A stretch of 64,000 nt of DNA from a virus (taxonomy: Duplodnaviria > Caudoviricetes): IMG/VR virus record IMGVR_UViG_3300042542_006078. The stretch is one strand, 5' to 3'. The number at the start of each line of letters is the position of its first letter. Within the stretch, counting starts at the first letter, position 1. The notes under the pieces are model-generated. The model was given only the letters and a program-made list of their open reading frames with translations, ran no database searches and had not been told where the DNA came from. Shown in pieces: positions 21,684 through 61,219 of this stretch. A program made the position numbers and the translations under genes.

Positions 21684-21757
21684 GCCCCCGTAACTCAGGT
21701 GAATAGAGTAGCGTTTTTCTAAAGCGCAAGTCGTTGGTTTGAATCCAACCGGGGGTA
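21684..21757 (+). tRNA. tRNA-Arg, anticodon TCT (reads AGA); CCA not encoded
   Basis: cloverleaf: acceptor GCCCCCG/CGGGGGT, D stem ACTC/GAGT, anticodon stem GCGTT/AGCGC with loop TT-TCT-AA, T arm GTTGG-TTTGAAT-CCAAC, discriminator A. Confidence 0.9.
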
Positions 21758-21811
21758 TTTTTATTTTTTATCATATGATTTTTTCCATTTTCTTATTGCA
21801 TTGGTGCCATT

Positions 21812-28853: not shown

Positions 28854-29116
28854 ACATTCCGTCAACTCCTGACGGATGGAGAGTAAAAATGAATGATAAA
28901 CACATGAGAACATTGGCCGCTTTTGAGCAAGTCGGGGCCTTTCTGAACATATTTGCCAATTTCCTTTATTCTTATCACAAAGACCTCGTCAACGCTGGAT
29001 TCCAAAGAGACGAAGCATTAAAATTGGTTAGGCAGCTACAAGCGACAATATTTAAGGAATCATTTAACAATAGCACAACAAATGATCCTGATTTGGATCG
29101 GGATTACGAAGAATAA
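28850..29116 (+). CDS. hypothetical protein
   Basis: 88 aa; YxxLxxAGFxxxEALxL helical motif common in phage proteins. Confidence 0.6.
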   Translation: MNIPSTPDGWRVKMNDKHMRTLAAFEQVGAFLNIFANFLYSYHKDLVNAGFQRDEALKLVRQLQATIFKESFNNSTTNDPDLDRDYEE

Positions 29117-29820: not shown

Positions 29821-29869
29821 CAAGTTGATAAACCGTCTTTTTCAGACGGCGCAACAGTAAAAAAGAGAT

Positions 29870-40801: not shown

Positions 40802-40827
40802 TTGACAAAAATAAGGCATTCTGTCTT

Positions 40828-41484
40828 ATGGACAAACAATTAAAAAAACTTACTCTTTGCGGGGATGTTCATGGCAATATCCCCGCATATCTTGATCTTG
40901 TCAAAAATTCAGATTATTCAATACAACTTGGCGATCTCGGCTTTATTTACAAGCCGATTATATTTAATGTTTCATCTGAATTTCACAAAATTGTAGCTGG
41001 AAATCATGATAATTATACTATAGAGAAAGGTGTGTTCGTTGATCAAACATCACATTTTCTTGGTGATTTTGGTGTTCATGTTGTTCCTGAAATCGGCTCT
41101 TTCTTTTTCATTCGTGGAGGACAAAGCATCGACAGGGATCAAAGGCTTGTTGGGATAGATTGGTGGCATGAAGAGGAATTGAGCTACGAAAAATGTGTTC
41201 AGGCTTGCAATTATTACCAAGAAATCAAGCCAGAAATCGTAATATCTCATGAATGCCCAAAAGAAGTAATTCCTTATGTGTCTAAAATGGAGAGATATAA
41301 CGGAAGGCCTATAAGGGAAAGCAGGACTTCTTTGATTTTGCAAAATATGATTGAAATCCATAGACCTAGGCATTGGTTTTTTGGTCATTATCATGTAAGT
41401 TGGTCTATGATGATAGGTAGAACGCAATTTCGTTGCCTGAACGAGCTTGAAACATTTAACATATTTGAAGGCGGTCTTTCATGA
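40828..41484 (+). CDS. calcineurin-like metallophosphoesterase
   Basis: GDVHG, LGDLG, GNHD, ISHECP, FGHYH. Confidence 0.88.
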   Translation: MDKQLKKLTLCGDVHGNIPAYLDLVKNSDYSIQLGDLGFIYKPIIFNVSSEFHKIVAGNHDNYTIEKGVFVDQTSHFLGDFGVHVVPEIGSFFFIRGGQSIDRDQRLVGIDWWHEEELSYEKCVQACNYYQEIKPEIVISHECPKEVIPYVSKMERYNGRPIRESRTSLILQNMIEIHRPRHWFFGHYHVSWSMMIGRTQFRCLNELETFNIFEGGLS

Positions 41485-42077
41485 ACTACTTGGTGTCAAC
41501 ATTTCTTGATGAAGAGAGTTGGGAAAAGTTTGGACTTAATTGGTTGAGAAGCGCCAAATCTGCTTCATTACAGGCTTTGATTATTGGCAAGAATTTGCCT
41601 GAAGTCGCACAACAGAAAATTAAAGAGTTGAATTACAAATTTGTTCCAGTCGAAAATAAATTCAAGACTGATTGTAATTTTCATTACACTCTTTCACGCA
41701 ATCTTGAAAAAGGACAAAGATGTTTGTGGACAAGACCTGATTTGTTGCCAAAGGCAGGATTTGAAACCGATGCAGATGTTACATGCTCTTATTCTAATAT
41801 AAATATAAATGATTTGGTTTCTCCAGTCATCAATCTTTATGACAGAGCAGCCATGATCCAGTCTTTGCAACAGAATATTGAAAAAATACATGGAAAATAT
41901 TTGTCGAGTAATTACATGCTCGGAACATCTGATTTTTGGAATGGTCTTTTTGGATGCAGGGCTTACTTATTTGAGAAAGGATATTTGCAAGGAAGTGGAC
42001 ACAGCGATGATTTGGTATTAAACTTTTTCATAGTCTTTGCAAACTCTTTTTCTGTAGAAGTGAAAAACTATGCCTGA
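41481..42077 (+). CDS. hypothetical protein
   Basis: 198 aa; ATGA-coupled. Confidence 0.6.
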   Translation: MNYLVSTFLDEESWEKFGLNWLRSAKSASLQALIIGKNLPEVAQQKIKELNYKFVPVENKFKTDCNFHYTLSRNLEKGQRCLWTRPDLLPKAGFETDADVTCSYSNININDLVSPVINLYDRAAMIQSLQQNIEKIHGKYLSSNYMLGTSDFWNGLFGCRAYLFEKGYLQGSGHSDDLVLNFFIVFANSFSVEVKNYA

Positions 42078-42189
42078 TTTCATACCAATGACACTATTTC
42101 ATATTGGGTCTTTTGTTTTTTTTATGATTGCAATGACCTTTGTATGTCTTTTTTTTATGGTAATATCGGAGCCCAGTGATAAAGAATGA
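42070..42189 (+). CDS. 39-aa single-TM peptide (not in the ORF track)
   Basis: MPDFIPMTLFHIGSFVFFMIAMTFVCLFFMVISEPSDKE; overlaps upstream stop and is ATGA-coupled to the next gene. Confidence 0.5.
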   Translation: MPDFIPMTLFHIGSFVFFMIAMTFVCLFFMVISEPSDKE

Positions 42190-42617
42190 GCATTCTCTTA
42201 TTTGTTTATGGAACTTTGAAAAATAATTTCTCTCGTTCCCTTGCAAATTTCAATCAGCACTATTTGGGAACAGCAAAGACAACACCAGAATACGCCATGT
42301 TTGCTCTCGGTGGTTATCCAGCCTTGCTAAATAAAAAGCTAGCAGTGCAAAATGATGTCGTTGCTGATAGGTCAATTTTTGGTGAAATATGGGAAATCGA
42401 TGATGAGTGTGTCGTAAAATGTGATAAAATTGAAGGTGTTGATTTTGACCTCTTTGAAAGAAGCCGCATTGATATTGAGGAATTCACTTTGTTAAATTTG
42501 CCTCTTCATAAAAGTGTATGGCAAGATGTCGAACTTAAAAAATCTTGGGCTTATTTGTACAAAAAGCCGATTAGAGGTGCTGCAAACTGTGGCTCATATT
42601 GGCCTCGTCATGGATGA
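42186..42617 (+). CDS. gamma-glutamylcyclotransferase / AIG2-like protein
   Basis: LFVYGTLK, YPAL, IFGEIWEI, DKIEG. Confidence 0.85.
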   Translation: MSILLFVYGTLKNNFSRSLANFNQHYLGTAKTTPEYAMFALGGYPALLNKKLAVQNDVVADRSIFGEIWEIDDECVVKCDKIEGVDFDLFERSRIDIEEFTLLNLPLHKSVWQDVELKKSWAYLYKKPIRGAANCGSYWPRHG

Positions 42618-42642
42618 TTAAAATTTACGGAAATTAATTAAA

Positions 42643-43011
42643 ATGGTTATTTTTTTATCTTTTCTTGGCGGAATTTTATTTGCATCAACTATTTTCTTTT
42701 TGTACAGAATTTTTCTTGTTGGTCAAATTGAATCACTGCAAAATAAATCGGTTCTCGATGATCTTGAAATAGCTACCAAGGAGCAATTGCTCAAGGAATT
42801 CAGGAGCAGACCAAATAATTCATATATTCTTTTGATGCCTCTCAATAAAAAAGATGAAGCTGGCATGAATATTGAACTGAATTCATTCTCGCCATACGAC
42901 AGCGTTAGTCTTTTGCATTTGGCAACTTGTCTTATATTCCGTGACATGAAAAATAGAGGAATGAGTGTGCCTGATTTGCCTCCAATTGATGAATATGACG
43001 ATCAATTATGA
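42643..43011 (+). CDS. membrane-anchored hypothetical protein
   Basis: N-terminal TM helix. Confidence 0.6.
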   Translation: MVIFLSFLGGILFASTIFFLYRIFLVGQIESLQNKSVLDDLEIATKEQLLKEFRSRPNNSYILLMPLNKKDEAGMNIELNSFSPYDSVSLLHLATCLIFRDMKNRGMSVPDLPPIDEYDDQL

Positions 43012-44150
43012 AAAAAAAAGCAAAAATATGTCTTAACACAATGGTCGCAAATGAATCTCATGTTATTTTGAGAATGTTGGAATCTTGTTGGAAATATATT
43101 GATTATTGGATTATTCAGGACAACGGCTCCAAAGATGGAACTCAGCAACTTATCACTAATTTTTTTGCTGAAAAAGAAATCGAAGGATTTCTTTATGAAA
43201 CTAATTGGCAATATCCCGGTATCAACAGAGATGATGCTTTGCAAAAATGTCTTGTCGCCAATCATGGTTGCGACTGGATTTTGAGAATAGATGCTGACGA
43301 ATCAATTCAAGTAAGCGATGATTTCGATTGGAGTCTTCTAGAAGATAATTCCATTCAAAGTTTTAACATTATGGCTTCTCAAGGAAATTGCATTTACCAT
43401 AGGTGTTGGTTGTGGAATGCTAAACTGCCTTGGAAGTTCAAGCACGACAAAAGACATGAAATTATTTACCTAGATGGAGTTGGGGAAGGATTCCAAAGAT
43501 ATCCTATGCCTGATGGATTTAGGCATGTTGTATTTGGTGATGGAAAATCTTGGTTCAATCCTACTAAGTTCTATGGCGATGCTCTTGAAATAGAAAAAGA
43601 TTTGTTAACATCTGGCAAAATGAAATCTGACTTTTATCATTTGTTTTACATTGCCAAAAGCTATCGTGATGCAGTTCTCAGCACGGATTCAAATTGGCCT
43701 TTTGGTGTGATCCATAGGGATGAATGCACAAGAAGAGCAATTTTCTTCTTTGAAAGATACCTTGATACTGCTCATGATTATGGAAAAAACAAAGATCCTA
43801 AATATATTGATGAAATGGGTTACATATCATTAATTTCAATTTCAGAATGTTATAGATTGATGGGCCAACACGAAAAATCACTCAATTGTCTCAGTGAAGC
43901 CGAAAAATTCTGCCCTGAGAGAAATGAACATTTATTGGAAATGGCTCATGTTTTTCTTGATATTGGTGAAAATCTAGATGCTTTAAGAGTTTTGATAAGA
44001 GCTTCTTCTCCTGAGAGAAAAAATCCTTTCCCTAATTATACTTTATTTTTGAATAATGACGCTTATTGCGACACAGGAGACTACATCCATCATCTTTGCC
44101 AAGAAATTCATCAGATTATTGTTGAAAAATCTTTGATAATTCAACAATAG
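43008..44150 (+). CDS. GT2 glycosyltransferase fused to TPR-like helices
   Basis: ICLNTMVANESHVILRMLES, IIQDNGSKDGT, LRIDADE, HE; C-terminal FYIAKSYRD…PERNE repeats. Confidence 0.8.
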   Translation: MKKKAKICLNTMVANESHVILRMLESCWKYIDYWIIQDNGSKDGTQQLITNFFAEKEIEGFLYETNWQYPGINRDDALQKCLVANHGCDWILRIDADESIQVSDDFDWSLLEDNSIQSFNIMASQGNCIYHRCWLWNAKLPWKFKHDKRHEIIYLDGVGEGFQRYPMPDGFRHVVFGDGKSWFNPTKFYGDALEIEKDLLTSGKMKSDFYHLFYIAKSYRDAVLSTDSNWPFGVIHRDECTRRAIFFFERYLDTAHDYGKNKDPKYIDEMGYISLISISECYRLMGQHEKSLNCLSEAEKFCPERNEHLLEMAHVFLDIGENLDALRVLIRASSPERKNPFPNYTLFLNNDAYCDTGDYIHHLCQEIHQIIVEKSLIIQQ

Positions 44151-44592
44151 TTTCATCGGCATTCTTGTGTCTAATCGCTTTGCCGCCCATTTCTTTCCAT
44201 TCTTTGATATTAATGTCAAGATCATCAATTAAAATGTTGTTTTCGCAGGAGTATTTCTTTTTCTTATCACTATGAGAAACGCACAATATTCTTGATGATG
44301 GGATGCCAAGATTGTTTTTGCACCATATTTTTTTACCTCTGGCAGCAGCACGATATCCAGAACAAGATGTTAGGATAAATGGATTGTATTTTTTGATATG
44401 GTCCCATAAAGTCGTGCAATCTTCTGTTCTAGGTAGATTTGCCCAGAAATCACAGTTTTCCTTTTCGCTAAGACTTTCCATGTGTTCGTAAAATTTGATA
44501 CTGAAAATTGGCAAAATGTCATATCCGTATAAATCATTCATATGTTTTTGTAAATCAACTAAAACTCCATCTAAGTCGCAAAAAATAACCAT
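44116..44592 (-). CDS. HAD-family 5'(3')-deoxyribonucleotidase
   Basis: IFCDLDGVLVD, ILTS, GK..W, ILIDD…W…GG. Confidence 0.85.
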   Translation of the reverse strand: MVIFCDLDGVLVDLQKHMNDLYGYDILPIFSIKFYEHMESLSEKENCDFWANLPRTEDCTTLWDHIKKYNPFILTSCSGYRAAARGKKIWCKNNLGIPSSRILCVSHSDKKKKYSCENNILIDDLDINIKEWKEMGGKAIRHKNADETIVELSKIFQQ

Positions 44593-44705
44593 GTGTTTTT
44601 CCCTCGTTGCTCAATATTAACTTAAAACTGTTTGAAATGCTAGTTTACTATTTTTTCAAAACGCTGTATATTGAACCCACTAGATGACAGAAACGCCATG
44701 ATGGC

Positions 44706-44993
44706 ATGAGGAATCAGATGAAAAATCTTATGGGAAAAAACCAAACCTTGCAGCTATACAAGGTGATAGCATCTTATGATAAAGATATAGACGATTGGTT
44801 TGTCGAAAGATTAGAAGCTACAGATACTTTTTTTGAAATCAAAGTTCCTAGCCAAGAGGAAATTTGCAAAAAAGTTGGAGTGAATAGGAAAAGGCACATA
44901 GCATTAGTTAGTAAGAATGATGTTTTCATTTGTGAAAAGTCAACCAATCGTCCAGTGGCATACATGAAAAAGGCAACCAAAGTTGATGATTAG
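44706..44993 (+). CDS. hypothetical protein
   Basis: 95 aa; candidate promoter TTTACT-17-TATATT at 44644-44672. Confidence 0.55.
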   Translation: MRNQMKNLMGKNQTLQLYKVIASYDKDIDDWFVERLEATDTFFEIKVPSQEEICKKVGVNRKRHIALVSKNDVFICEKSTNRPVAYMKKATKVDD

Positions 44994-45000
44994 CCGGGAT

Positions 45001-45297
45001 TCACGGATTAGTTTTATTTTCTTGCACTAATTCAAGAACCTTTGGCTTTTGGCCGATATATGTTTCATAACATTGAATGGCTTTTGTGCCATACAGAGTA
45101 AATGTATCTCCATATTTTAACGGTTTGTTCCAGTATGGAATAATAACTTGGACGCTTTTAAGTCCAAGTATTATATTTTCCATGCTGTTTGGCAATGTCT
45201 GACTTGCAAGTTCAACAGGATCAATTGGATTGACCCTGAATGTGTACTTGGGTTCTAACTTCATGTTTTTTGGTTTGCCCACGATTTCTCCTTTCAA
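45001..45297 (-). CDS. stand-alone copy of the domain at the C-terminus of ORF 23584
   Basis: PKYTFR…MENIILGLK…IPYW…LKYGDTFTLYG; SD aaggag; TAAATA directly upstream. Confidence 0.65.
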   Translation of the reverse strand: MKGEIVGKPKNMKLEPKYTFRVNPIDPVELASQTLPNSMENIILGLKSVQVIIPYWNKPLKYGDTFTLYGTKAIQCYETYIGQKPKVLELVQENKTNP

Positions 45298-45326
45298 TAT
45301 TTAAGTTAAAAAAATCAAATATTGAT

Positions 45327-45355
45327 TTGACATGATCAATTTATGGAAATATTCT
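45327..45355 (+). promoter_or_regulatory. sigma70-type promoter
   Basis: TTGACA-17-TATTCT, followed at once by hairpin CTGTCA-TCAAA-TGACGG. Confidence 0.65.
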
Positions 45356-45409
45356 TAATATAAATCTGTCATCAAATGACGGATATTCGTTTAAGAATCG
45401 GAGGTCGAT

Positions 45410-46324
45410 ATGAGCGAGAAAAAGACTGATTCAGTAATTAAATTTTTTTCTGATGAAAATTCTTTCTCAAATCTAAAAATGAGGGTAGCTATACTTGGAA
45501 AGATGCCTGATTTTGTTTCTTTTCAAAAAGGCATTCAAAAAATTGAAAAGATCAAGATGGAAAAGATAAATCCTGAAATGATGCCTTGTTACAAATCTCC
45601 TCTTTTGACTAAGGAACAAGAGGTTCATTTATTCAGAAAGTTTAATTATCTCAAATATAAAGCCAATAGTCTTTATGGAATTGAAAAAGAATCCAAATTC
45701 TTTGATGTAAAGAAGAAATTAGCGGATCACATCTATAAAAAAGCCATCCAAACCAGAAACTTGATTGCTGAAAGTAATTTCAGGCTGGCTACTCAAATCA
45801 TGAAACACAAGAAGGGCAATCAAGACTCCAACACAGAATCCGTATTGAGCGATGCTTACTGGGATGTACTCAAAGCGGTAGAATATTTCAACTGGACATT
45901 GGGACTCAGATTCAGCACTTATGCTACATGGGTAGTTAAGAAGAACTATTTTAGAGAAGCCAAGAACAAACAGACCAACTCGGAAAAGTTGACATTTCTT
46001 GATGATTCAAGAGCCGAAAATATTGAAGATCGAAATGGAATTAGTTCAGAAGAAAAAAATCAAGAAGCTAGGCAATATATGGTCAATAAGCTTATAAACT
46101 TATTGATTAAAGAAAATATAGGAACAGATAGGGCTAGGCAAGCTTATGTGCTTGAAAACTACTTTGGTGTCAACGGAAGAAAAAAGCTCACCCTTGAGCA
46201 GATTAGCGCACAGATTGGCGTAACAAAAGAAAGAGTGCGTCAATTGAAGGAAAAAGGATTGCAGTGGATAAGGCAAAAGGTAAACGATCTTAATCTTAAC
46301 ATGGAAGATGCTAGTTACTTTTGA
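45410..46324 (+). CDS. RpoD/RpoS-like sigma-70 factor
   Basis: region 1.2 PLLTKEQEVHLF; 2 RNLIAESNFRLA…RFSTYATW; 4 LTLEQISAQIGVTKERVRQL; region 3 largely missing; SD ggagg. Confidence 0.9.
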   Translation: MSEKKTDSVIKFFSDENSFSNLKMRVAILGKMPDFVSFQKGIQKIEKIKMEKINPEMMPCYKSPLLTKEQEVHLFRKFNYLKYKANSLYGIEKESKFFDVKKKLADHIYKKAIQTRNLIAESNFRLATQIMKHKKGNQDSNTESVLSDAYWDVLKAVEYFNWTLGLRFSTYATWVVKKNYFREAKNKQTNSEKLTFLDDSRAENIEDRNGISSEEKNQEARQYMVNKLINLLIKENIGTDRARQAYVLENYFGVNGRKKLTLEQISAQIGVTKERVRQLKEKGLQWIRQKVNDLNLNMEDASYF

Positions 46325-47022
46325 AAAACAACATCCAAAAACTTGATGTTATAATTCTTTCTTATACGAAAGATTTGTGTTACTATGGAATAACACAAAG
46401 ATGCATATCATCTTTGTTTAGAAATAATATAAATTTATCATTGAATGTTATAGTTGTAGAAACAAATAGTAATTTAGAAAATGAATATTTGTTTTATAAC
46501 GGATGTAAGGTTGTTTTACCTTGCGAAGAATTTAATTACAATAAATTTATGAATATAGGACTTCAATATTGTAATTCAGAATTTGTTATGATGTGTAATA
46601 ATGATTTGATATTTGGACACAATTCGGCAGAAAACCTTTTACAAACTATGATAAGCAATGACATGAAAAGCGCATGTCCTCTTGAGCCAAACTGGCATAA
46701 AACAAAACTGAGCGAAGTGGAATATCAGTCGCCAATTTTGGAAGGATATGAGGTTGAAAAACATATTGTTGGTTGGTGTATTTGCGCTGATAGAAAGATG
46801 TTGTGTGATAATCAAATTTTGGATGAAAAGTTTTCTTTTTGGTATCAAGATAATGATTATGCCAATACATTGAAGAAATTAAACATAAAGCACTTTCTTG
46901 TAAAATCCAGTCATGTCTATCATGAATTTAGCATTTCGCACAAACTACTAGGAAACAGAGCGCACGAATTAACACATGGCTTAAAAAGCGTTTACGAAGA
47001 AAAGTGGCAAGGCAACTATTGA
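46321..47022 (+). CDS. glycosyltransferase family 2
   Basis: DVIILS, IVVETN, FNYNKFMNIG, MCNNDL, LDEKFSFWYQDNDY, VYH. Confidence 0.8.
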   Translation: MKNNIQKLDVIILSYTKDLCYYGITQRCISSLFRNNINLSLNVIVVETNSNLENEYLFYNGCKVVLPCEEFNYNKFMNIGLQYCNSEFVMMCNNDLIFGHNSAENLLQTMISNDMKSACPLEPNWHKTKLSEVEYQSPILEGYEVEKHIVGWCICADRKMLCDNQILDEKFSFWYQDNDYANTLKKLNIKHFLVKSSHVYHEFSISHKLLGNRAHELTHGLKSVYEEKWQGNY

Positions 47023-47061
47023 CAATTTATTTTGAAATGAGACAATGAGTTTCTAGTAGTT

Positions 47062-47640
47062 TTGTTGAATATGCAAGGAAGTAATATGTTACAAGATGGA
47101 CTTTCTGCTTGTAAATCATGGAAGGGCAAAGCCCTTCTTGTTAACGATTTTTATCAGTCTAGGAGAATTGATAGTTCACTTGAGCCAATGTGGATTCATG
47201 GAGCATATGAAATTGTTAAAAATTATATTGATGATACTTTGCAAAAGGATCAAATTAAATTTTTCTATGATATCATTAGAAGTCATGAGTTGCCTGATGG
47301 ATTTGAAGTCCCATCCATGCCCAATGTTCCAAGTAGCCCAATTAGGATTATGCACGAAGGCTGGAAGATAGGTAGTCCAACTTGGATATTTATGGGTCGT
47401 AACCAACCGGGAGCAGCAGTCCATGTTAATGGAGATTGGATCGCAGTAAAAAGAACAATTCCTGCCGAAATGTACAAATTTTTCGATCCTCAACTCCCAG
47501 ATTCTATTTGGATGGCTTACAGCACTAAAAATCAAATGGCGAGTATGAATTCTTCTCAAGATGATGGTGGAATAGGTCCGGCCATGGATTTTGAAGACCT
47601 AGTTGAAGCAATTGAAAAGAAGATTGCACAGAAAGTTTGA
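47062..47640 (+). CDS. hypothetical protein
   Basis: 192 aa; TTGACA-16-GACAAT with TG at 47019-47046. Confidence 0.55.
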   Translation: MLNMQGSNMLQDGLSACKSWKGKALLVNDFYQSRRIDSSLEPMWIHGAYEIVKNYIDDTLQKDQIKFFYDIIRSHELPDGFEVPSMPNVPSSPIRIMHEGWKIGSPTWIFMGRNQPGAAVHVNGDWIAVKRTIPAEMYKFFDPQLPDSIWMAYSTKNQMASMNSSQDDGGIGPAMDFEDLVEAIEKKIAQKV

Positions 47641-47681
47641 TTTTAGAAATCATTAAAATTAGGATTATTCTTATCAAAATG

Positions 47682-47711
47682 ATAAGCCCCTTGTTGAAAA
47701 AAGGGGCTTAT
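47682..47711. terminator. bidirectional intrinsic terminator
   Basis: ataagcccctt/aaggggcttat stem between convergent genes. Confidence 0.8.
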
Positions 47712-47735
47712 TTGAATTTTTACTTATATGTAAGA

Positions 47736-48812
47736 TCAATCAAGGTTTGTAATAATACCATCTGTTGCGCCAACAATTGCCTTCAATGTTAATGCGTTTG
47801 TGGTGTCTTTGATAGCTCTAACAGATCCGTCACACATGACTGCATTAGCAACGCCACTGTGGAAACTAAAAGGTTCATCGTTAGGACCACAGTTGTTTAC
47901 GCTCCAAGGACAGCTAGAAGGACCGCCAATTGGTGTTTGATTATTGTTAATTCTAGCCGTTTTATCAGAAGTGCTATTACTCGGACCAGACAAGCCGTTT
48001 CCGCTCGCATCGGGGTCAGCCCACGCATAAACACGACGAGCAGTTGTTAGGCTTAAATCACCAATTACGGGATGACCGGGAGCAGATACAGGTGAACTTC
48101 TTGCAGAACCAGCACCGAACATAGTCATTGTTGGATGCGCTCTACCAGCATCTTCAATTACAAGCAAAGTATTGCTTGTTCCATCTAAAATACTTGTAAT
48201 AGTAGATCCTTGAGCAGTTAAAGGTCCATAATATTTTCCTTTATAGCTAGCAGAACCAGTTCCAGATACTCTTGAATTTGTGCCTTCATCAATATCGCTA
48301 ACACAAGCAACCATATAGTCAATAACACCAAGATTTTCACCATTTGATCGAGCAGTAGATCCAAGTGGTGTAGAAGGACAAACAAATGTCTTTACTTGTG
48401 TTTGAGAGGCAGTCCAACCGCTAGGATAAGCTGGATCATCATAATCTCTTCCTTTTGCCAATGCGTGTAAAAGCGTTGTGTTGTATCCAGTCCAGTTTGT
48501 GTTCGTGTGATCAAACATTTTATATGTTGATTCTTGTTCGATGTAAGGAAGAATTTGCGTACACCAAGAATGAATCATATAAGTAGTAGTATTAGATCCA
48601 GTGCTATCAATTTGACCGGGATGAGGCAACTTGCTATATCCTGATTCAAATGCGTGAAATCCTAGACCAATTTGTTTCAAGTTGTTAGTGCAACTCATGC
48701 GATTAGCTGCTTCACGAACCTTTTGTACTGCTGGGACAAGAAGTCCGATAAGCACAGCAATGATGGCAATAACAACTAACAATTCAATCAATGTAAAACC
48801 CTTGCGCTTCAT
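47736..48812 (-). CDS. DUF1559 prepilin-type N-terminal cleavage/methylation domain protein (Planctomycete family)
   Basis: KRKG|FTLIELLVVIAIIAVLIGLLVPAVQKVREAANRMSCTNNLKQIGL; SW…LPYIEQ; FVCPS; DGTSNT; C-terminal H-X9-DG (HSGVANAVMCDG); SD ggaggag. Confidence 0.95.
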   Translation of the reverse strand: MKRKGFTLIELLVVIAIIAVLIGLLVPAVQKVREAANRMSCTNNLKQIGLGFHAFESGYSKLPHPGQIDSTGSNTTTYMIHSWCTQILPYIEQESTYKMFDHTNTNWTGYNTTLLHALAKGRDYDDPAYPSGWTASQTQVKTFVCPSTPLGSTARSNGENLGVIDYMVACVSDIDEGTNSRVSGTGSASYKGKYYGPLTAQGSTITSILDGTSNTLLVIEDAGRAHPTMTMFGAGSARSSPVSAPGHPVIGDLSLTTARRVYAWADPDASGNGLSGPSNSTSDKTARINNNQTPIGGPSSCPWSVNNCGPNDEPFSFHSGVANAVMCDGSVRAIKDTTNALTLKAIVGATDGIITNLD

Positions 48813-49026
48813 TTTCTATTTCTCCTCCCGCCATATAATGACGGATTTTTCCCAATAAAGTAACGATGATATAGTAGCCAATAAAAATATAGGATTAAAA
48901 GTGTTTTCGGAGAATAAAAATTGAAGATTTGATGAAGAAAATTTTTCCAAAATAACACTTTGTTTCAATTAAAATGTTTGCTAAAATTAAAATGAAAGAA
49001 AAATATTGTCGATGAGGTGTTTTCAA

Positions 49027-49500
49027 ATGAAAGTGAAATTTTTCAAAAATATACTTCGCAATGGCGGTAAAGTTAGCTTTTTATTGCCAGAAAAAAAGTA
49101 TTTTCCCGGTCATTTCCATGTGACTGAAGTCGCAAAAGTGACAAAAAATTGCATTGATTGCGGCGGAGAATCAAGGCAATTTAATTTTGTAACATTGCAG
49201 CTATGGCTTGGAGATGATTTTGATCATAGGATTAATTCCCAAACCATGAAAAATATCATGGAAAATATTGAATCTTGTTGTGATGAATGGGACATAAAAG
49301 TTGAACTAGACAGCGGAACAACTGGTTTATACGATATAGAGGAGGTTATCCTTTACTCAAACCAAATTAACAACTCTAATAAAACTGGTTACGACAACGA
49401 GAACATTACTTTTCAACTAGAAAGAACTTATACCAACTGTCTTGCTCCACAAAAGTGTGGCTTGAAAGACCAAAGAGAATGCAGCGATTCTTGCTTCTGA
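49027..49500 (+). CDS. DUF6428-like protein
   Basis: HFHVTEVAKV..CIDCGG..R…LQLW..DDFDHR; C-terminal TNCLA…C. Confidence 0.7.
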   Translation: MKVKFFKNILRNGGKVSFLLPEKKYFPGHFHVTEVAKVTKNCIDCGGESRQFNFVTLQLWLGDDFDHRINSQTMKNIMENIESCCDEWDIKVELDSGTTGLYDIEEVILYSNQINNSNKTGYDNENITFQLERTYTNCLAPQKCGLKDQRECSDSCF

Positions 49501-49525
49501 AAAGAATACTGCTAGGGAGTGAAAA

Positions 49526-49783
49526 ATGCTTGATGCCATCATGCCAGTTGTGCAACCAGAAATTTGCTTTTCAATCGAAGATGAATGCAAAGATTTTTCA
49601 GACGCTGATACAGTTAAAAGACTTTATAAAAAAGTCAAAGATGAAAATCCAATTGTTGCCATGTGGATAAAGAATTGGGCAAAGCAAACCAAGGATCGAA
49701 TTGGTTCTATGGCATGCGCTTTGATTACCTATCGTCTCATTCAAAGCCAAATTGAAGCAGACATCATGAATAGCAACTACTAA
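49526..49783 (+). CDS. hypothetical protein
   Basis: 85 aa, SD gggag. Confidence 0.6.
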   Translation: MLDAIMPVVQPEICFSIEDECKDFSDADTVKRLYKKVKDENPIVAMWIKNWAKQTKDRIGSMACALITYRLIQSQIEADIMNSNY

Positions 49784-49850
49784 AATTCTTGGTTATCGAT
49801 ACATTTTTGATCTGTTTATACATATCTAAATGTGTCAATAACCAAGGAGC

Positions 49851-50255
49851 ATGATGGAACAAGACTGCCGAACCTTGGGCGAAAAAGTGAGTGACGGAGT
49901 AGCCAAATTTGGCGGGTCTTGGTATTTTATCATAACTGGTTTTTTTGTTATTCTTTTTTGGGTTTTTTTCAACACAATACCTTTCTTTTACCATTATGAT
50001 GGTTATCCTTTTATTTTACTCAATTTGTTACTTTCGCTTATAGCAGCTTTTCAAGCTCCATTCATTTTGATGGCGCAAAGAAGAGTTGAAGTCAAACAAG
50101 ATGCCATTTACAGGGCCTTGTTTAGGGAAATAAAAGAACTAGTCGAAATTGATCTAAGTCTTGAAAATGAGGTATTGGAAACAAACAAGAAAATGGAGCA
50201 AGAAATACAAGTTTTGAAAGAAATGCTCAAGCAACAACAAAAAGAGAGCCAATGA
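49851..50255 (+). CDS. DUF1003 membrane protein
   Basis: SDGVAKFGGSWYFI…DGYPFILLNLLLSLIAAFQAPFILMAQ; SD aaggag. Confidence 0.87.
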   Translation: MMEQDCRTLGEKVSDGVAKFGGSWYFIITGFFVILFWVFFNTIPFFYHYDGYPFILLNLLLSLIAAFQAPFILMAQRRVEVKQDAIYRALFREIKELVEIDLSLENEVLETNKKMEQEIQVLKEMLKQQQKESQ

Positions 50256-51151
50256 AATACCGTTGCACATCTACTATAATTTTTGATTTTGAAACTGATT
50301 TGCCTTATGAGCAAGCAATCAACTTGGCCAAGAATTATCTCGATGAGATACCAATCAAAGAAGGCCTAGAAAACACCAGAACAGTTTTGCAACTCGATAA
50401 ATTGAAATCAAAAGTAGAAAAAATTAAATTGGGCGAATTCAAACTTGATGAAGTATTTCCTTTTCTTACAGAAGAAAATTCTAAAAAACAATTCATAGTA
50501 GACGATAAAACTTATGATGTTAAGATGAATACTGACAGGTATCATCTTTTCAAAAACAATTTATCTTGTGTTTCCTGCGGACTAACCGGAACCAGACTTT
50601 TCCTTGAATGTCATCCAGCAGATATGAAACCTCATTTTAATCTATATGGGGAAGAGGACAGAAAATTGGTTCTCTTTACCAAAGATCATATTACCGCAAG
50701 GGCATTCGGAGGAGAAAACACATTAGAAAATTATCAAACCATGTGCAGCACATGCAATAGCTTGAAAGCTCACAGCAACTTATCGTTAGAATCAGTATCA
50801 AAACTGAGGAAAATTTACAACGATAATAGGAAAAAAATCACCAAGAAAAAATTGCATGTTCTGATTGAAGATGAAAGAAAAAAACTTGAATTACCTTGGC
50901 CTCATTTGATATATGAGCAAAAAAACATCATACCAAAAAATGGAATACAAGTTAATTGTGACTTGGCTATTATTGAAGAGGATGCAAATTTGATCTGCAT
51001 TCCAGAAAAACAATTGCCAGAATCAATATTGTCAAGAGGTTATATAAAGGATCAGTCTTATCTGGAAGAAATTGTTGAAATAAACGGAATGATTATTTGT
51101 AAATTGACAGATGGAAGAATTGTTCGCTTGAATAAGAAATATATGAAATAA
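50252..51151 (+). CDS. HNH endonuclease domain protein
   Basis: CVSCG…TKDHITARAFGGENTLENYQTMCSTCNSLK. Confidence 0.78.
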   Translation: MKYRCTSTIIFDFETDLPYEQAINLAKNYLDEIPIKEGLENTRTVLQLDKLKSKVEKIKLGEFKLDEVFPFLTEENSKKQFIVDDKTYDVKMNTDRYHLFKNNLSCVSCGLTGTRLFLECHPADMKPHFNLYGEEDRKLVLFTKDHITARAFGGENTLENYQTMCSTCNSLKAHSNLSLESVSKLRKIYNDNRKKITKKKLHVLIEDERKKLELPWPHLIYEQKNIIPKNGIQVNCDLAIIEEDANLICIPEKQLPESILSRGYIKDQSYLEEIVEINGMIICKLTDGRIVRLNKKYMK

Positions 51152-51193
51152 TAAATAACTGGTCTAAATATCTGTGTAAAATAGAGGTGAGTT

Positions 51194-51820
51194 ATGAAAA
51201 TAGAAGATTGGGAGAAAGAACTAAAAAAACAAATTATGGATGAGCCACAGACCGTGACTCCAAATGTAAATAATAATCCAGTCAATAATGAACAACCCAA
51301 TCTCAGTCAGCAGCCTAAAGTTAATGAAGACCCAAAATCTTTGCCACCACCAGTTCAGTTGGTCGTAAATAACCAACAACAAGATGGAAGTGGCACATGG
51401 ATGTTCGTTCTGATGCTTATTGCCTTGGCTGCGGCAACTTTGTATGTTTATGATGACAAGACAGGAGGTAAACTTAAGTCGTCTATCACCTCTTCTTTTC
51501 ACTCTAAAACAGAATCAAAGACGATAATTGAAAGATCAGATGCTGAAGTTGCAAAGTTGAAGGCCGAACTTGATAAATTTAGATCTGAAAACAAAGCATC
51601 TATTGATTCTATTCAGGCAAAACTCAATACCAATTCCACCAAGATTGGTTTGATGGGCATTCTTTTGAATGAAAATTTCACCATGATCATGCGTGGAGAA
51701 AATTTAAGTGACTTTATATTCTTTAATCGGGACTGGACTTTGGACAGAATGCCGAAGCATATTGAGATTACTGAAGATGACAGGGAATATCTGAAGAAAA
51801 TGGTTAGGTCGGGTCAGTAA
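51194..51820 (+). CDS. single-TM coiled-coil protein
   Basis: Pro/Asn/Gln-rich N-terminus, TM WMFVLMLIALAAATLYVY, coiled coil; CTAAATA at 51164. Confidence 0.6.
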   Translation: MKIEDWEKELKKQIMDEPQTVTPNVNNNPVNNEQPNLSQQPKVNEDPKSLPPPVQLVVNNQQQDGSGTWMFVLMLIALAAATLYVYDDKTGGKLKSSITSSFHSKTESKTIIERSDAEVAKLKAELDKFRSENKASIDSIQAKLNTNSTKIGLMGILLNENFTMIMRGENLSDFIFFNRDWTLDRMPKHIEITEDDREYLKKMVRSGQ

Positions 51821-52551
51821 CACTTAAATGTAGATCCTCCTTGGTAACTTGATGCTTTCATGACATCATTAATCGACATGGAAATGTAGTCAGAAGCAAT
51901 TTCAGCCAAGTCTTTATCTTTTCTTAAATCATATATGATCTCAACTTGCATCGATGAGACATTTGCATCGTAATCCCATTTCCGAAAATATTGGTTGAGG
52001 TTCTGCCTTGACCATCCGCTCATTTGACCGCCAGCTTTACCCTCGTATGCAGTTATTCCACATTGATTAAGGGAATTAAGAAAATAATTTTTTTGCCATA
52101 AGTCGCATGAAAGGCTGTTTGGACTACCTGCTCCATATCCAACAACTACATCAAGGCGAGGATCTTTAGATATTTTTCTGTGACGATTACTCATGCCGTG
52201 AATATAAAAAATATAGGCAATTTGGTGGCGTGTCAGAATCCTGTTCTTAAACCTAATGATCGGATCAAGGAATTCTTCTCTAACAACATCTTCCTTGCAA
52301 TGATAAACATTGTTGCAATCAGCTTTATCTTTCATGAAATCAACGGATTCTGCTCTTTCCCATCCACGATTGATTACAGCATAACAATCAATATTTTTAG
52401 CAATGTGTTCCACTATCAAATCCGTATTTTCATCGTCCTGCCCGTAGCCGTGTGGGGCCACTAAGATGACGGGATTGAGCCCTTCAATAATGCTCACTCT
52501 TTCCATACTGTTATTATAGATGAGATTTTTTAGATTACTGCAAATATTCAA
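51814..52551 (-). CDS. N-formylglutamate amidohydrolase / poly-gamma-glutamate hydrolase-like protein
   Basis: ILVAPHG…ENT, YIHG, QVEI zinc-hydrolase pattern; start may be 52506. Confidence 0.45.
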   Translation of the reverse strand: MNICSNLKNLIYNNSMERVSIIEGLNPVILVAPHGYGQDDENTDLIVEHIAKNIDCYAVINRGWERAESVDFMKDKADCNNVYHCKEDVVREEFLDPIIRFKNRILTRHQIAYIFYIHGMSNRHRKISKDPRLDVVVGYGAGSPNSLSCDLWQKNYFLNSLNQCGITAYEGKAGGQMSGWSRQNLNQYFRKWDYDANVSSMQVEIIYDLRKDKDLAEIASDYISMSINDVMKASSYQGGSTFKCY

Positions 52552-52618
52552 GAACTAATTTTTTTCTTCAAACGATAAATAGTTTCTGTGTTCTATTTGT
52601 TCCCTTTTAAGGAGATTG

Positions 52619-52783
52619 ATGATTACTGATAAATTATTGTTGGACTTATCATCCAAAAACCCAGATGTCGTTAAAAATTATCTAGAGGCAATTCTTGCAG
52701 TTAAATACATACTGAATAAAAAAGGTATGCTCATGGAAATCAAAAAGATCAAATCAAAGAAGAAAACTAGTTTTTTAGCTTGA
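52619..52783 (+). CDS. 54-aa basic protein (not in the ORF track)
   Basis: ATAAATA at 52575, SD aaggag; MITDKLLLDLSSKNPDVVKNYLEAILAVKYILNKKGMLMEIKKIKSKKKTSFLA. Confidence 0.55.
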   Translation: MITDKLLLDLSSKNPDVVKNYLEAILAVKYILNKKGMLMEIKKIKSKKKTSFLA

Positions 52784-52825
52784 ATATAAAAAATTTTATT
52801 GTTCAGAAAAATTAAAAATTTTTAC

Positions 52826-52854
52826 TTGCCAAAATAAAAACATTATTTTAGAAT
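52826..52854 (+). promoter_or_regulatory. sigma70-type promoter
   Basis: TTGCCA-17-TAGAAT upstream of the RNA ligase. Confidence 0.6.
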
Positions 52855-52875
52855 TCATTATCAAGTCATTAAATC

Positions 52876-53886
52876 ATGACGGATTGTTCAAATATGCATG
52901 TTGCTACAATTGAGAAAGTGGTGTCTGTTAGGGAACATCCAAATGCAGACTTGCTACAAATAGCTACTATTTTAGGATGGGATGTGGTTTGTAAAAAACA
53001 AGATTGCCAAAAAGACGAACTTGTTGTTTTTATAAACATTGATAGTGTTGTTGATCCTCATCCATTTTTTCATTTCCTTAAAGCAAAAAGTTATCAAATA
53101 AAACCAATCAAAATCAGAGGACACATCAGTCAGGGACTTATTGTCCCCATAAAAGATTTACAACAATTTGGTTTCACCAAAATACAAGAATTGTCAATTG
53201 GCAGTGATGTTAGCAAAATAGTAGGAGCCAAACACTACGAGAAAATCGAACCATCAAGAACAACAGGAAAATCAAAAGGTCTATTCCCTAGTTTTCTTTT
53301 CAAAACAAATGAAAACAATCTCAGAAATTTTCCATTAGCCATCGAAGAGATAAAAGACAAGGAAGTTTACATAACACAAAAAATAGATGGAACAAGTGCT
53401 ACTTTTTATGTGAAATCTGGTAGGTTCGGAGTTTGTAGCAGGACTCTTGATCTTCAAGAAGATGAAAATCATTACTGGAATATGGTAAAAAAATATGATC
53501 TTGCATTCAAAATGTTGAATTTAGATGACGATATAGCTATTCAAGGAGAAATATATGGGCCAAGCATACAAAACAACTCTTCTGGTATAAAACAAATATC
53601 ATTCGCAGCATTTAATATATTTGATATAAAAAGATTAAATTATGGATCTTTGCAAGAATTGACTGATTTTTGCAGCACAAATGATATACCGCAAGCTAAA
53701 ATAATTTATCGTGGAAAAATGAATTTTGAATTAAAAGATTTAATTAGAATGGCAAGTGAGCAATTTTATGATAATAACAACCCTTGTGAGGGAATCGTAA
53801 TAAGGACTGTTGAGCCAATAAATTCAAAATGTATGGCTCTTAATAGATGGAGTGCCAAAGTTTTGAATGAAAACTACGATATATAG
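52876..53886 (+). CDS. ATP-dependent RNA ligase (DRB0094/Rnl2-like, N-terminal OB-type domain)
   Basis: HPNADLL; motif I TQKIDGTS; QGEIYG; AFNI; EGIVIR; SAKV. Confidence 0.9.
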   Translation: MTDCSNMHVATIEKVVSVREHPNADLLQIATILGWDVVCKKQDCQKDELVVFINIDSVVDPHPFFHFLKAKSYQIKPIKIRGHISQGLIVPIKDLQQFGFTKIQELSIGSDVSKIVGAKHYEKIEPSRTTGKSKGLFPSFLFKTNENNLRNFPLAIEEIKDKEVYITQKIDGTSATFYVKSGRFGVCSRTLDLQEDENHYWNMVKKYDLAFKMLNLDDDIAIQGEIYGPSIQNNSSGIKQISFAAFNIFDIKRLNYGSLQELTDFCSTNDIPQAKIIYRGKMNFELKDLIRMASEQFYDNNNPCEGIVIRTVEPINSKCMALNRWSAKVLNENYDI

Positions 53887-53917
53887 TTGGAAAAGCTCAA
53901 ATTAGGGAAAGGTAAAC

Positions 53918-54337
53918 ATGAACGAAAGCAATCTTATGCCACCAATCGGTTTCAATGAGGCGACAAACTCTACTGGTGGCAAATCCATATCGGTACTTTT
54001 CAGCAAGTTGTTTGAAGCAAGGGATTTTGCTCATTACGCCCATTTACAAACAAAGTCTTATAGCCAACACAAAGCACTAGGTTCTTTCTATGAAGAGATA
54101 GTTGATTTAGCAGACACACTATTTGAAACTTATGCTGGTCAATATGGAATCATCAAATTTAACATGGCCTCCGCTCCAGTTAATCAAGATGTAATTTCTT
54201 ACTTTGAAAACTTGGCAAAGACAGTTGCAGATTCTCATAATATTATTGACAAGAAAGACACTCATCTTCATAACATTCTTGATGAAGCTACCGCTTTAGT
54301 CTATCACACTATCTATAAGCTGAAAAACCTTAAGTAG
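53918..54337 (+). CDS. Dps/ferritin-like four-helix protein of T4-like phages
   Basis: AHYAHLQTKSYSQHKALGSFYEEI…DTLFETYAGQYG; LHNILDE…YKL. Confidence 0.75.
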   Translation: MNESNLMPPIGFNEATNSTGGKSISVLFSKLFEARDFAHYAHLQTKSYSQHKALGSFYEEIVDLADTLFETYAGQYGIIKFNMASAPVNQDVISYFENLAKTVADSHNIIDKKDTHLHNILDEATALVYHTIYKLKNLK

Positions 54338-55336
54338 TCAATCTGCTTCGTAATAGTAAATAGTCCTGAGCGGAGTTGGATGTAATTCTAACTCCGTTCC
54401 TTCTTTTATGAACAATAATATTGCGTTCAAACTCCTGTCAACTGAAGGAGATACTTCCGAATATTCAACAAATTGTCTTGTCTTCTGGCCCCACATCATC
54501 TGAACACTCGCTGCTCCAGAAGAATAAAACCAGTCTGTATCTGTTCCAGAACCATGAGCGTTTTCAATTCTTTCAGTCTTGTAACCATTTAATCCAGTCA
54601 TCTTGGCTATGATTCCAGAAATCTTGTCTCCATCTTCTTTCTTGCATATTTCAGGTGGATAAATTGATTCTCCCGGTGTGTGCATGTTCAATACAGCTTT
54701 GAATTTCATATTATTCATCATGCTCATCATGAGCTTGATTGGAGAAGGAGATGCATTGTTAGGCCTCTTTGGATAAGGAAAGCTTGTATGTGGATTGTAT
54801 CCTTCAATTTTATCTGGCTTAAGATATGTATCTGGACTTGCAACAGGAATAAAGTAAATGTCACGATTATCAACTATCCATGTAATGTCATCATTCTTTC
54901 CGTAACTACTTAAAATCTTTTCAATTAAATTCATGGTTGCTAGTATTGAAAACTCCTCGTCTCCATACAATCCAGATTGAATCAAAACTTTTGGTTTTTC
55001 TTTGTTTCCAATTCTAAAGTAATTACATTCAGTGCCTTGAGATGTTTTTCCATATGCTGTCACTTCAGTTACTGAAGGAGCTTCCAAATTCCACTTCTTA
55101 AGTTGTTCTATAATGTCGCCATATCCCTTATAAAATTGCATCACTGGACTTATTGTAAATGAGTGATCTGCTACTTTAGAAGGACTTGAATGAGATTGGG
55201 GCAAAGAATCGTTATTTTTAATGATTACTTGTTTATTTTTTGATGTAATATTTTTCTTGTATATGAGAATTCCTTCTGACACCAAGAGAAGTGGAACAAG
55301 AAGAATTAAAATAGTTCTTGAATTCACCATAATCAT
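54338..55336 (-). CDS. membrane-anchored M14 carboxypeptidase-like protein, probably catalytically inactive
   Basis: M14 scaffold (YGKTSQG, VLIQSG, FIPVASPD, NMHT, GTDTDW) but LYGDE replaces the IHxxE motif and the catalytic Glu is absent. Confidence 0.72.
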   Translation of the reverse strand: MIMVNSRTILILLVPLLLVSEGILIYKKNITSKNKQVIIKNNDSLPQSHSSPSKVADHSFTISPVMQFYKGYGDIIEQLKKWNLEAPSVTEVTAYGKTSQGTECNYFRIGNKEKPKVLIQSGLYGDEEFSILATMNLIEKILSSYGKNDDITWIVDNRDIYFIPVASPDTYLKPDKIEGYNPHTSFPYPKRPNNASPSPIKLMMSMMNNMKFKAVLNMHTPGESIYPPEICKKEDGDKISGIIAKMTGLNGYKTERIENAHGSGTDTDWFYSSGAASVQMMWGQKTRQFVEYSEVSPSVDRSLNAILLFIKEGTELELHPTPLRTIYYYEAD

Positions 55337-55405
55337 TTCTCCATATTGTTATATATGCGTAACAATTCGTGATTAAAATTTCGTTGATCAACTGGTAAAT
55401 AAATT

Positions 55406-56176
55406 ATGAAGAATTTCAAAGCATGGTTATTTGAATCGGAAAGTTATATCGATGATAAAACAGTGTCTTACTCAGATTGTTTTGGCATTATAAGAGATGC
55501 CATAAAACTAAGAGATTCAGGAATTAGTGCATCAAGTTTAATTGATGCTAGAATTGGCATGGACACTAAACCATTTTTTTATTTGGAAGATATCAATAAA
55601 GTTTTTCTTGGAAATTTTGGCTCATATCATAGATCAATAATCGATAATCTTAGAATTAGAAATTCTGAAGATGAAAATTTGCGAAATGAACTAGCAAGGC
55701 TTTATTACGGTCTTTCTGGCGCAAATTCCCCCATGGGAGTAGTTGGTAGAATTGCATATGGAATAAACTACAACAATATTAATATTTATATTCCTCGTGA
55801 TTTGAGAGTTGATTTGGAAAGAAAAAATATGCAAGAACTCAAAGATAAAATGAGGGGCATGGATATCATTGCTTTTTACAAATCAAAGAGTGGTTCTAAA
55901 ACTGACGAGAATGTTAAAAAGTGTCTTAAAAAGCTTGAACAAGATGGCCATGTCAGAAATAAAGACAAAACAATTGTAATTAATGAGAATAAAGTCACCA
56001 TTTTTGATTCCCTTGAAGATGATTATAAATCTCCTGAAAATGAAAAAGAAGAAATTAAGCTTACAATGCAACAATCAAAAGAAAAAAGTCGTAGATTTAT
56101 TCCTAAGCCTCAAACAATGAGACAGGCAGCATACCAAGCTGGTATTCCAATGGGTGATTGGAACACAAATCTTTAG
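55406..56176 (+). CDS. paralog A of an uncharacterised tandem family
   Basis: MKNFKAWLFESE; KPFFYL..KVFLG..G.YH; VGRIAY; shared tail …AYQAGIPMGDW; TAAATA at 55396. Confidence 0.75.
   Translation: MKNFKAWLFESESYIDDKTVSYSDCFGIIRDAIKLRDSGISASSLIDARIGMDTKPFFYLEDINKVFLGNFGSYHRSIIDNLRIRNSEDENLRNELARLYYGLSGANSPMGVVGRIAYGINYNNINIYIPRDLRVDLERKNMQELKDKMRGMDIIAFYKSKSGSKTDENVKKCLKKLEQDGHVRNKDKTIVINENKVTIFDSLEDDYKSPENEKEEIKLTMQQSKEKSRRFIPKPQTMRQAAYQAGIPMGDWNTNL
56069..56162 (+). repeat. 3'-cassette copy A
   Basis: 94 nt, 3 mismatches to copy B (56890-56983). Confidence 0.9.
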
Positions 56177-56190
56177 TGAATAATAAAAAT

Positions 56191-57012: not shown

Positions 57013-57026
57013 ATTCTAAATAATAT

Positions 57027-61174: not shown

Positions 61175-61219
61175 TTGTTGAACTCCTTGTTTTATGCCGC
61201 CAATTTTTGACGGAATACT

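Follow-up and report, generated by a model that had tools for sequence, protein, structure and literature searches.

A DUF1559 gene and its expression signals

The 64,000-nucleotide viral stretch analysed here (IMG/VR record IMGVR_UViG_3300042542_006078, which we refer to over its whole length as the window) carries, at positions 47736..48812 on the minus strand, a gene for a prepilin-type protein of the DUF1559 (H-X9-DG) family. This is the biggest paralogue family of Planctomycetota and one without a known function; Planctopirus limnophila has 68 copies, two of them essential (PMC10632474). The open reading frame (ORF) starts with ATG and codes for 358 amino acids. A sequence-only reading had described the product as a complete DUF1559 protein with a prepilin signal and an H-X9-DG motif, and had named four hidden Markov models by which this could be checked. 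The protein exceeds the cut-offs of all four and is a full member by both Pfam and NCBIfam models: it matches PF07596 (DUF1559/SBP_bac_10) over residues 30-339 and model positions 1-266 of 268 (E 1.3e-42; 147.2 bits against a cut-off of 23.3), PF07963 (N_methyl; 33.6 bits against 21.2), TIGR02532 over residues 3-25 (31 bits against 16.3) and TIGR04294 (H-X9-DG) over residues 314-335 (34 bits against 19). The gene is thus confirmed as a complete member of the DUF1559 prepilin-type family.

The motifs of the family are in place. The protein begins with a class III leader peptide, MKRKG (48798..48812, minus strand), within the region matched by N_methyl and TIGR02532 (residues 2-25). The leader reads MKRK-G/FTLIE, with predicted cleavage by prepilin peptidase after Gly5, so that Gly5 is position -1, Phe6 is +1 and Glu10 is +5. 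The PAVQKVREAA and CTNNLKQIGL stretches are both present, and the H-X9-DG motif (47826..47861, minus strand), running from H318 to G329, is intact as H318-X9-D328-G329 and lies in predicted C-terminal beta-strands (321-326 and 331-335). H318, D328 and G329 do not vary among 40 aligned homologues, and every residue that is invariant in that alignment is kept in the phage protein, including C41, C145, C301 and C308. The models for the GspG major pseudopilin (TIGR01710; 30.5 against a curated equivalog cut-off of 88.85) and for ComGC (NF040999; 37.6 against a curated cut-off of 75) match below threshold and at the N-terminus only (residues 4-56).

The same reading had credited the gene with its own Shine-Dalgarno (SD) sequence, leader hairpin and terminator, and all three can be located. 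The SD sequence GAGGAG lies 9 nt upstream of the ATG (48822..48827, minus strand), and a corresponding AGGAGA is conserved in a diverged relative, L016. Abutting it is the hairpin CCGTCATTATATGGCGG (48828..48844, minus strand), which belongs to a family dispersed ahead of start codons in the window and falls within a 31-nt stretch that L016 lacks. Downstream, a bidirectional intrinsic terminator with an 11-12-pair stem and T-runs on both strands (47681..47712) is common to the DUF1559 gene and the convergent gene at 47062-47640. A scan for sigma-70-type promoters upstream of the gene gives hits that are no more numerous than in shuffled sequence.

Residence in a huge lake phage

The sequence-only reading had placed the gene among phage-type genes, and several lines of evidence uphold this. 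The window has a GC content of 35%, and the GC content at third codon positions (GC3) of the DUF1559 gene is 25.6%, as compared with 21-38% in adjacent genes and 49-98% in cellular homologues. Planctomycete DNA that had been joined on recently, or by chimeric assembly, would look different, because the gene has the GC3 of the phage and not that of the cellular copies. The window codes for a virion structural protein (phrog_1645, E 1e-102), for which Puniceispirillum phage HMO-2011 and cyanomyoviruses provide the best relatives at 40-43%, and a minor coat protein (phrog_1644), as well as PhoH, dUTPase, endonuclease V (DenV), RNA ligase, an HNH endonuclease, two sigma factors and several glycosyltransferases.

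A second IMG/VR viral record, G001, is 99% identical to the window. CheckV rates its 80 kb as 18% complete, from which we estimate a genome of roughly 440 kb. Contigs coding for a 95%-identical DUF1559 protein (P0001) show the same gene order in at least 18 cases, all from lake metagenomes and up to 315 kb in length. At least 80% of the sampled words of 47000-49500 are contained in each of 20 public runs from 15 lake or freshwater studies (2017-2024), and in one of these runs (X4) a single independent contig of 6.4 kb runs ungapped across 45500-50804 (17 mismatches) and bridges both junctions of the gene. Together, the GC3, the synteny and the bridging contig set aside the concern, raised with the original reading, that the contig might be chimeric or cellular.

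Searches of INPHARED phages with the DUF1559 protein by tblastn (E 1e-5) and with 20 kb of the surrounding DNA by megablast find no match, in a set from which records close to the window may be missing. A search of G001 for Gp23 is blank, which is uninformative as G001 is only an 80-kb fragment. There is no sign of lysogeny in the window. The setting of the gene is an uncultured huge phage of lake water, with virion proteins.

Orthology to a single planctomycete paralogue

Among the best 80 GTDB loci (one genome per species), 79 are labelled as Planctomycetota or as families or genera within it, the exception being a metagenome-assembled genome (MAG) labelled Alcaligenaceae. The nearest homologues are therefore from bacteria of the PVC (Planctomycetes-Verrucomicrobia-Chlamydiae) group, as the sequence-only reading required. 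We compared the phage protein with four candidate hosts, which are freshwater planctomycete genomes with a GC content of 51-57% and include an 8.8-Mb Gemmataceae chromosome. Each has 41-89 or more DUF1559 matches, in agreement with the great expansion of the family in this phylum that had been claimed. Within each of the four, a single copy stands out at 69-77% identity to the phage protein, no other exceeding 51%; because of this gap we regard the phage gene as the orthologue of one particular paralogue. Each of the four candidate hosts has a gene for a prepilin peptidase (PF01478); none was found in G001, whose 80 kb span the region in question.

A tree of DUF1559 proteins, which had been proposed as a check together with BLASTP against Planctomycetota, places the phage copies among those of freshwater planctomycetes. 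The window's copy and four others form a phage clade, A (support 100/99), of which three of the four non-window members (L016, L108 and L109) stand in low-GC, phage-type contexts. Clade A is nested in a clade of cellular freshwater planctomycete copies (98/98), and its sister group includes P0006, which is found in a cellular context. The copy of the Gemmataceae chromosome branches just outside that cellular clade, with Gemmata and Frigoriglobus farther out. The association of the QKVREAA variant with Gemmataceae, made in the sequence-only reading, fits these sequences, as the copies from Pirellulales have QAAREAA instead. Further phage copies (L102, L001, L002 and others) make up a second clade, B, the sister of another cellular subgroup. 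Clades A and B are apart in the free tree (supports 85/83 and 93/98), although a single clade remains compatible with an approximately unbiased (AU) test (p 0.24). The DUF1559 genes of further low-GC viral contigs belong to quite different lineages, one inside Pirellulaceae (L003) and others on deep branches (L005-L010). We conclude that phages have captured DUF1559 genes several times. The remaining phage-type member of clade A, L109 (JACCDJ011249661.1, GCA_013562115.1), carries an 82%-identical allele amid many tiny ORFs and has no synteny with the window; this allele family has thus moved into at least one unrelated phage-like backbone.

In their genomes the cellular orthologues have a constant companion. 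In all of those examined, a lipoprotein of 119-130 amino acids with a conserved G-C lipobox is encoded no more than about 100 bp downstream (L020 7117-7476, L021 7093-7470, L022 7110-7502, L026 7088-7474, L048 7154-7525 and L030 4964-5332). The small lipoprotein has a weak match to CarboxypepD_reg. DUF1559 and lipoprotein form a conserved two-gene cellular unit, which may offer a clue to the function of DUF1559. Complex prediction for the phage globular domain with the host lipoprotein scores 0.00, which speaks neither for nor against binding. No second prepilin-type gene was found in the window, and Pfam and PHROG scans of its other ORFs found no second planctomycete-specific gene.

Gain, loss and exchange of the gene

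Comparison of the window with the 99%-identical record G001 reveals that the gene occupies a discrete cassette. A segment of 1295 bp (47626..48920) is present in the window and absent from G001, which is contiguous over 40000-47625 and 48921-58000, with GAAGAA microhomology at the junction. Besides the DUF1559 ORF with its SD sequence and hairpin, the cassette contains the terminator, the final five codons of the convergent gene and a leader of about 110 bp. On both sides of the gap the identity to G001 falls, to 85-87% in 47400-47625 and to 93% in 48921-49020, as against 99-100% elsewhere, and we therefore place the cassette within a recombination patch of about 1.6 kb (47400..49020). As the same slot is filled by a DUF1559 gene in four diverged relatives (L016, L108, L004 and L015), the simplest reading of the empty site of G001 is that the gene was lost there. 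The C-terminal end of the neighbouring gene carries no information on the direction of this change, since the C-termini differ in all relatives, and the G001-type empty junction was not seen among the contig joints of the four runs examined.

The filled slots have a history of their own. Between the window and L016 the DUF1559 gene is 95% identical in protein and 91% in DNA (dN 0.027, dS 0.40), whereas in six flanking genes the protein identity is no more than 51-79% and dS is saturated; between the window and L108 the DNA identity is 88% in DUF1559 against 67-68% in the flanks. The similarity is not spread evenly over the gene. Codons 51-345, which make up the globular-domain part (47778..48662, minus strand), have dS of 0.28 with respect to L016 and 0.39 with respect to L108, while codons 1-50, coding for the signal and helix, have dS of 3.2 and 1.5 respectively, the L016 value being like that of the backbone. 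The high identity to L016 ends at the stop codon on one side and ahead of the SD sequence on the other, and the shared globular-domain tract has phage composition. Because the gene is a mosaic in this way, we conclude that it was already in the slot in the common ancestor of these phages, and that its globular part was later replaced or homogenised by recombination between phages that otherwise have diverged backbones. The slot has also seen turnover: in L004 and L015 it codes for a DUF1559 protein with just 42-44% identity to that of the window, and the best match of this protein (49-50%) is with a different paralogue on the Gemmataceae chromosome.

Throughout these changes the protein has been held under constraint. 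Within clade A, dN/dS is 0.067 with respect to L016 and 0.105 with respect to L108, and of the 188 positions at which at least 18 of the 19 orthologues that are cellular, or presumed to be so, agree, 187 are kept in clade A, the sole change being E201Q. The copy in the phage has stayed true to its orthologues and is strongly constrained by purifying selection. As a whole, the gene shows the behaviour of a mobile cassette that is kept by selection, a feature that is new in this analysis.

Variation is also visible within individual runs. One contig from run X7 joins 48812 to 48921, such that the 108-bp leader is skipped or replaced. Two gene-body alleles occur in one sample (47883-48288 in X7 and X6), with 0 and 35 differences over 406 bp, which indicates that several cassette variants coexist in one lake.

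Predicted structure

An AlphaFold2 model of the phage protein (pLDDT 82, pTM 0.81) has a 52-residue N-terminal helix followed by a largely irregular and beta-rich domain, and places the H-X9-DG residues in two strands at the C-terminal end. The helix, alpha-1, comprises residues 8-59 (48636..48791, minus strand), is modelled with pLDDT 86-94 along its length and would be the segment for pilin polymerisation and membrane anchoring. A Foldseek search of the PDB gives no match at E <=0.001; pilin helices alone are returned, at E >0.3. With an exhaustive structure aligner 21 solved chains reach Z >=2, and all 21 are type IV pilins or pseudopilins (PilA4, EpsG, PulG, PilV, ComP and others), the best Z being just 4.2. 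Notwithstanding the name SBP_bac_10, neither these 21 chains nor the Foldseek rows include a solute-binding protein, although that fold is not thereby excluded. The predicted fold is consistent with a pilin core carrying a large insertion, as in big minor pilins (PMC8179133).

Neighbouring genes and other features of the window

The gene convergent with DUF1559 (47062..47640, plus strand) is a conserved phage gene with orthologues in L016, L004, L015 and L108 at 43-51%; its last codons differ in G001. On the other side lies a divergent and variable neighbour (49006..49500, plus strand) coding for a DUF6428 protein (PF20001, 104.9 bits), the nearest named homologues of which are from Bacteroidia, Flavobacteriia and Sphingobacteriaceae, at 36-39%. 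Between DUF1003 and DUF1559, the window and L016 have DUF6428, L108 has a sulfotransferase-like gene with a small ORF (3000-3719), and L004 and L015 have nothing. This position is an accessory-gene hot spot.

DUF6428 and DUF1559 are found near each other in a cell as well. The Gemmataceae chromosome OZ245717 (L100/L022; L100 4915-10478) has the order ArsR, MIP channel, DUF6428, ArsC-type low-molecular-weight (LMW) phosphatase, ArsR, DUF1559, lipoprotein and ArsR. Co-transfer of the two genes from such an ars-like host cluster was considered and is not supported, because the phage DUF6428 is only 30% identical to the OZ245717 copy and is closest, among named relatives, to those of Bacteroidota. 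The flanks of the other cellular orthologues searched have no tblastn match to the phage DUF6428.

Several further features of the window were recorded. The leader hairpin is one of four of the form CCGTC-N7-G(A/G)CGG (48828-48844 and 61197-61213 on the minus strand, 28859-28875 and 29833-29849), where 0.01 would be expected; all four lie 10-30 nt ahead of a start codon, beside an SD sequence. Glycosyltransferases are encoded at 62957-63883 (minus strand), 1930-2658, 43008-44150 and 46321-47022, and one of them is exostosin/GT47-like (PF03016, E 8e-17), a family seldom met in phages. As a group these enzymes may constitute a kit for the modification of surface glycans. A lone tRNA-Arg(TCT) at 21683-21758 reads the AGA codon, which is favoured by AT-rich phage genes.

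Discussion

Taken together, these observations lead us to favour, as the probable though by no means certain explanation, that the gene came from a host, has long resided in an uncultured huge phage of lytic type and serves there as a functional moron, the product of which joins or replaces the host orthologue in a type IV filament-like machine, and that the host belongs to freshwater Planctomycetota, most likely of Gemmataceae type. In this model the gene would be transcribed alone, on the strand opposite to its neighbours, using its own SD sequence and terminator, and the precursor would insert in the cytoplasmic membrane by means of its class III signal. The prepilin peptidase of the host would cleave after Gly5 and methylate Phe6, and the mature protein would then join, or substitute for, the orthologous DUF1559 subunit of the host in a type IV filament or a pseudopilus-like machine of the envelope. 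As practically all of the positions conserved in the host orthogroup are kept, the phage copy should be competent for assembly; it departs from the host copy only in regions where the hosts also vary among themselves.

What the phage would gain is a separate question, and an altered pilus or cell surface is, as the sequence-only reading itself said, an inference. By analogy with P-FimU, the prophage-encoded FimU of Pseudomonas F10-like phages, we tentatively suggest remodelling of a surface fibre or receptor, leading to superinfection exclusion or to a smaller loss of progeny on cells that are already infected. Upkeep of an envelope or uptake function of the host during infection, in the manner of an auxiliary metabolic gene, is a lesser possibility, and a dominant-negative block of the filament seems improbable; other options share the odds that remain. 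The exchange at the level of the domain and the presence/absence polymorphism are in agreement with exclusion, while the strong purifying selection and the retention of host-conserved positions agree equally well with subunit replacement and with upkeep of a host function.

A number of observations weigh against this explanation. The strong purifying selection contrasts with the diversifying pattern reported for P-FimU, and the gene must be dispensable at least sometimes, as it has been lost in G001. DUF1559 has no assigned function in any organism (PMC10632474), and so the assignment as a filament subunit is drawn from the prepilin motif together with a structural match of low score (Z <=4.2). 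The lipoprotein gene (119-130 aa) that follows the cellular orthologues was not found in the phage window, and among the listed runs that contain the gene stretch there is no RNA run. Lastly, the identification of the host leans on DUF1559 alone within the window, because the nearest named relatives of DUF6428 are from Bacteroidota.

Of the alternatives, the one that fares best is that the phage copy simply does the normal job of the host protein while host expression collapses, with no role in competition between phages, and we regard this as possible if rather doubtful. A faithful orthologue with 187 of 188 conserved positions and dN/dS of 0.07-0.10, matching one specific single-copy orthogroup that is conserved in four genomes, is what this alternative predicts, and presence or absence in near-identical phages together with exchange between phages is typical of auxiliary genes in variable islands. 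It is also in line with the essentiality of two DUF1559 genes in P. limnophila (PMC10632474), although we can name no limiting step that would be relieved, the orthogroup being without a known function. Moreover, the lipoprotein partner of the cellular gene has not been co-acquired, and the recent swap affected the globular domain and not the whole gene, which suggests selection on surface variants.

A different host phylum, such as Bacteroidota, in which a gene that arrived indirectly now acts, appears unlikely. The DUF6428 neighbour, with its nearest named homologues in Bacteroidia, Flavobacteriia and Sphingobacteriaceae at 36-39%, would point in this direction, as would the lack of a second planctomycete-specific gene among those found in the window and the GC content of the phage of 35% against 51-57% in the candidate hosts. 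Huge phages are, however, often much more AT-rich than their hosts, and the identity of 69-77% to planctomycete orthologues far exceeds the 36-39% to Bacteroidota. All of the orthogroup-specific positions are kept, which argues that the protein works with the partners of that orthogroup, and unrelated low-GC phage lineages likewise nest in planctomycete clades (L003 in Pirellulaceae; A and B among Gemmataceae-type copies).

It is still less probable, and in our view very much so, that the gene is a neutral hitch-hiker of host origin that is on its way to being lost and has no part in infection. Its absence from the 99%-identical G001, and its location in a variable stretch where the neighbour may be DUF6428, a sulfotransferase-like gene or nothing, could be read in this way. 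But every copy seen is intact with dN/dS of 0.07-0.10, the composition has shifted wholly to that of the phage, implying long residence, the slot is filled in five diverged backbones (the window, L016, L108, L004 and L015), and an allele has spread between backbones. Finally, a mis-joined planctomycete gene or a wholly cellular contig can be dismissed: the N-terminal coding stretch is common to many cellular paralogues and does break short-read graphs, with contigs that end near 48766-48800 and GC-rich loose ends in X6, but a GC3 of 26% against 49-98% in cells, the X4 contig, at least 18 syntenic contigs from several samples and 20 runs from 15 studies with at least 80% of the words refute such an artefact.

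Returning to the moron that joins or replaces a host subunit, a bolder version, which we consider rather unlikely, may be put forward. The copied orthogroup would be a subunit of the surface fibre or envelope port through which huge planctomycete phages enter, and the cassette would be a mobile determinant of exclusion or host range, the globular domain of which is traded between co-infecting lineages and the polymorphism of which is maintained by frequency-dependent selection. If true, this would open the largest paralogue family of Planctomycetota to functional study for the first time and supply a receptor for their phages. More generally, that one paralogue has been copied and strongly selected and that its globular domain has been traded marks it as a paralogue of importance at the cell surface or envelope during infection. 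To our knowledge very few phages of planctomycetes have been recognised, and the orthology offers a concrete host hypothesis (freshwater planctomycetes of Gemmataceae type) for a clade of huge phages of about 440 kb. The filled and empty sites in 99%-identical genomes amount to a natural experiment that could be tracked in lake time series.

Comparison with known systems

The phage protein resembles the DUF1559 proteins of Planctomycetota (PF07596/TIGR04294) in its full-length match, the G/FTLIE cleavage site, the PAVQKVREAA helix, the four invariant cysteines and H-X9-DG. It differs from them in that its gene is carried by a huge phage of 35% GC, has phage codon usage and is monocistronic, without the downstream lipoprotein gene, and in that its leader is short (4 residues) whereas the cellular N-termini are longer.

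With GspG/PulG pseudopilins and modular minor pilins such as GspK (Raynaud et al. 2021, PMC8179133) it shares the prepilin motif and the long alpha-1 helix, and in the predicted model the C-terminal beta-sheet appears to align with those of EpsG, PulG, PilA4 and PilV. The large insertion between helix and sheet is a likeness to the big minor pilins (PMC8179133). Unlike GspG and ComGC, the phage protein falls under the curated cut-offs of both models, and the structural Z is at most 4.2.

The closest precedent in terms of biology is P-FimU, which has counterparts in the PilA-like proteins of virulent (non-temperate) phages (Sztanko et al., Cell Rep 2026, PMC12952977), and for which replacement of a surface subunit that blocks competing phages has been reported from experiment (PMC12952977). 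In both cases a phage carries a homologue of a type IV filament subunit of its host, here at 69-77% to one host orthologue, and the action that we propose, incorporation in place of the host subunit, would be the same. In the present case, however, the protein family and host phylum are different, the phage is huge and the system is known from sequence alone. Furthermore, the DUF1559 gene is under purifying selection (dN/dS 0.07-0.10), and the high diversity expected of an arms race is not seen, although the globular domain has been exchanged as a block.

A further parallel is found in cyanophages, which carry the host-derived auxiliary genes psbA and pstS. The likeness extends to orthology with a host gene, purifying selection, phage composition, location in a variable region, patchy presence and intragenic mosaic exchange; in contrast to these genes, DUF1559 codes for neither a metabolic enzyme nor a known part of a transporter. 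Our literature search found no paper that describes DUF1559 together with phages. Pilin-like mimics of host proteins encoded by phages are of an already known kind, and what is new here is the orthology to a single paralogue, the host hypothesis for a clade of huge phages and the dynamics of the cassette at the level of the population.

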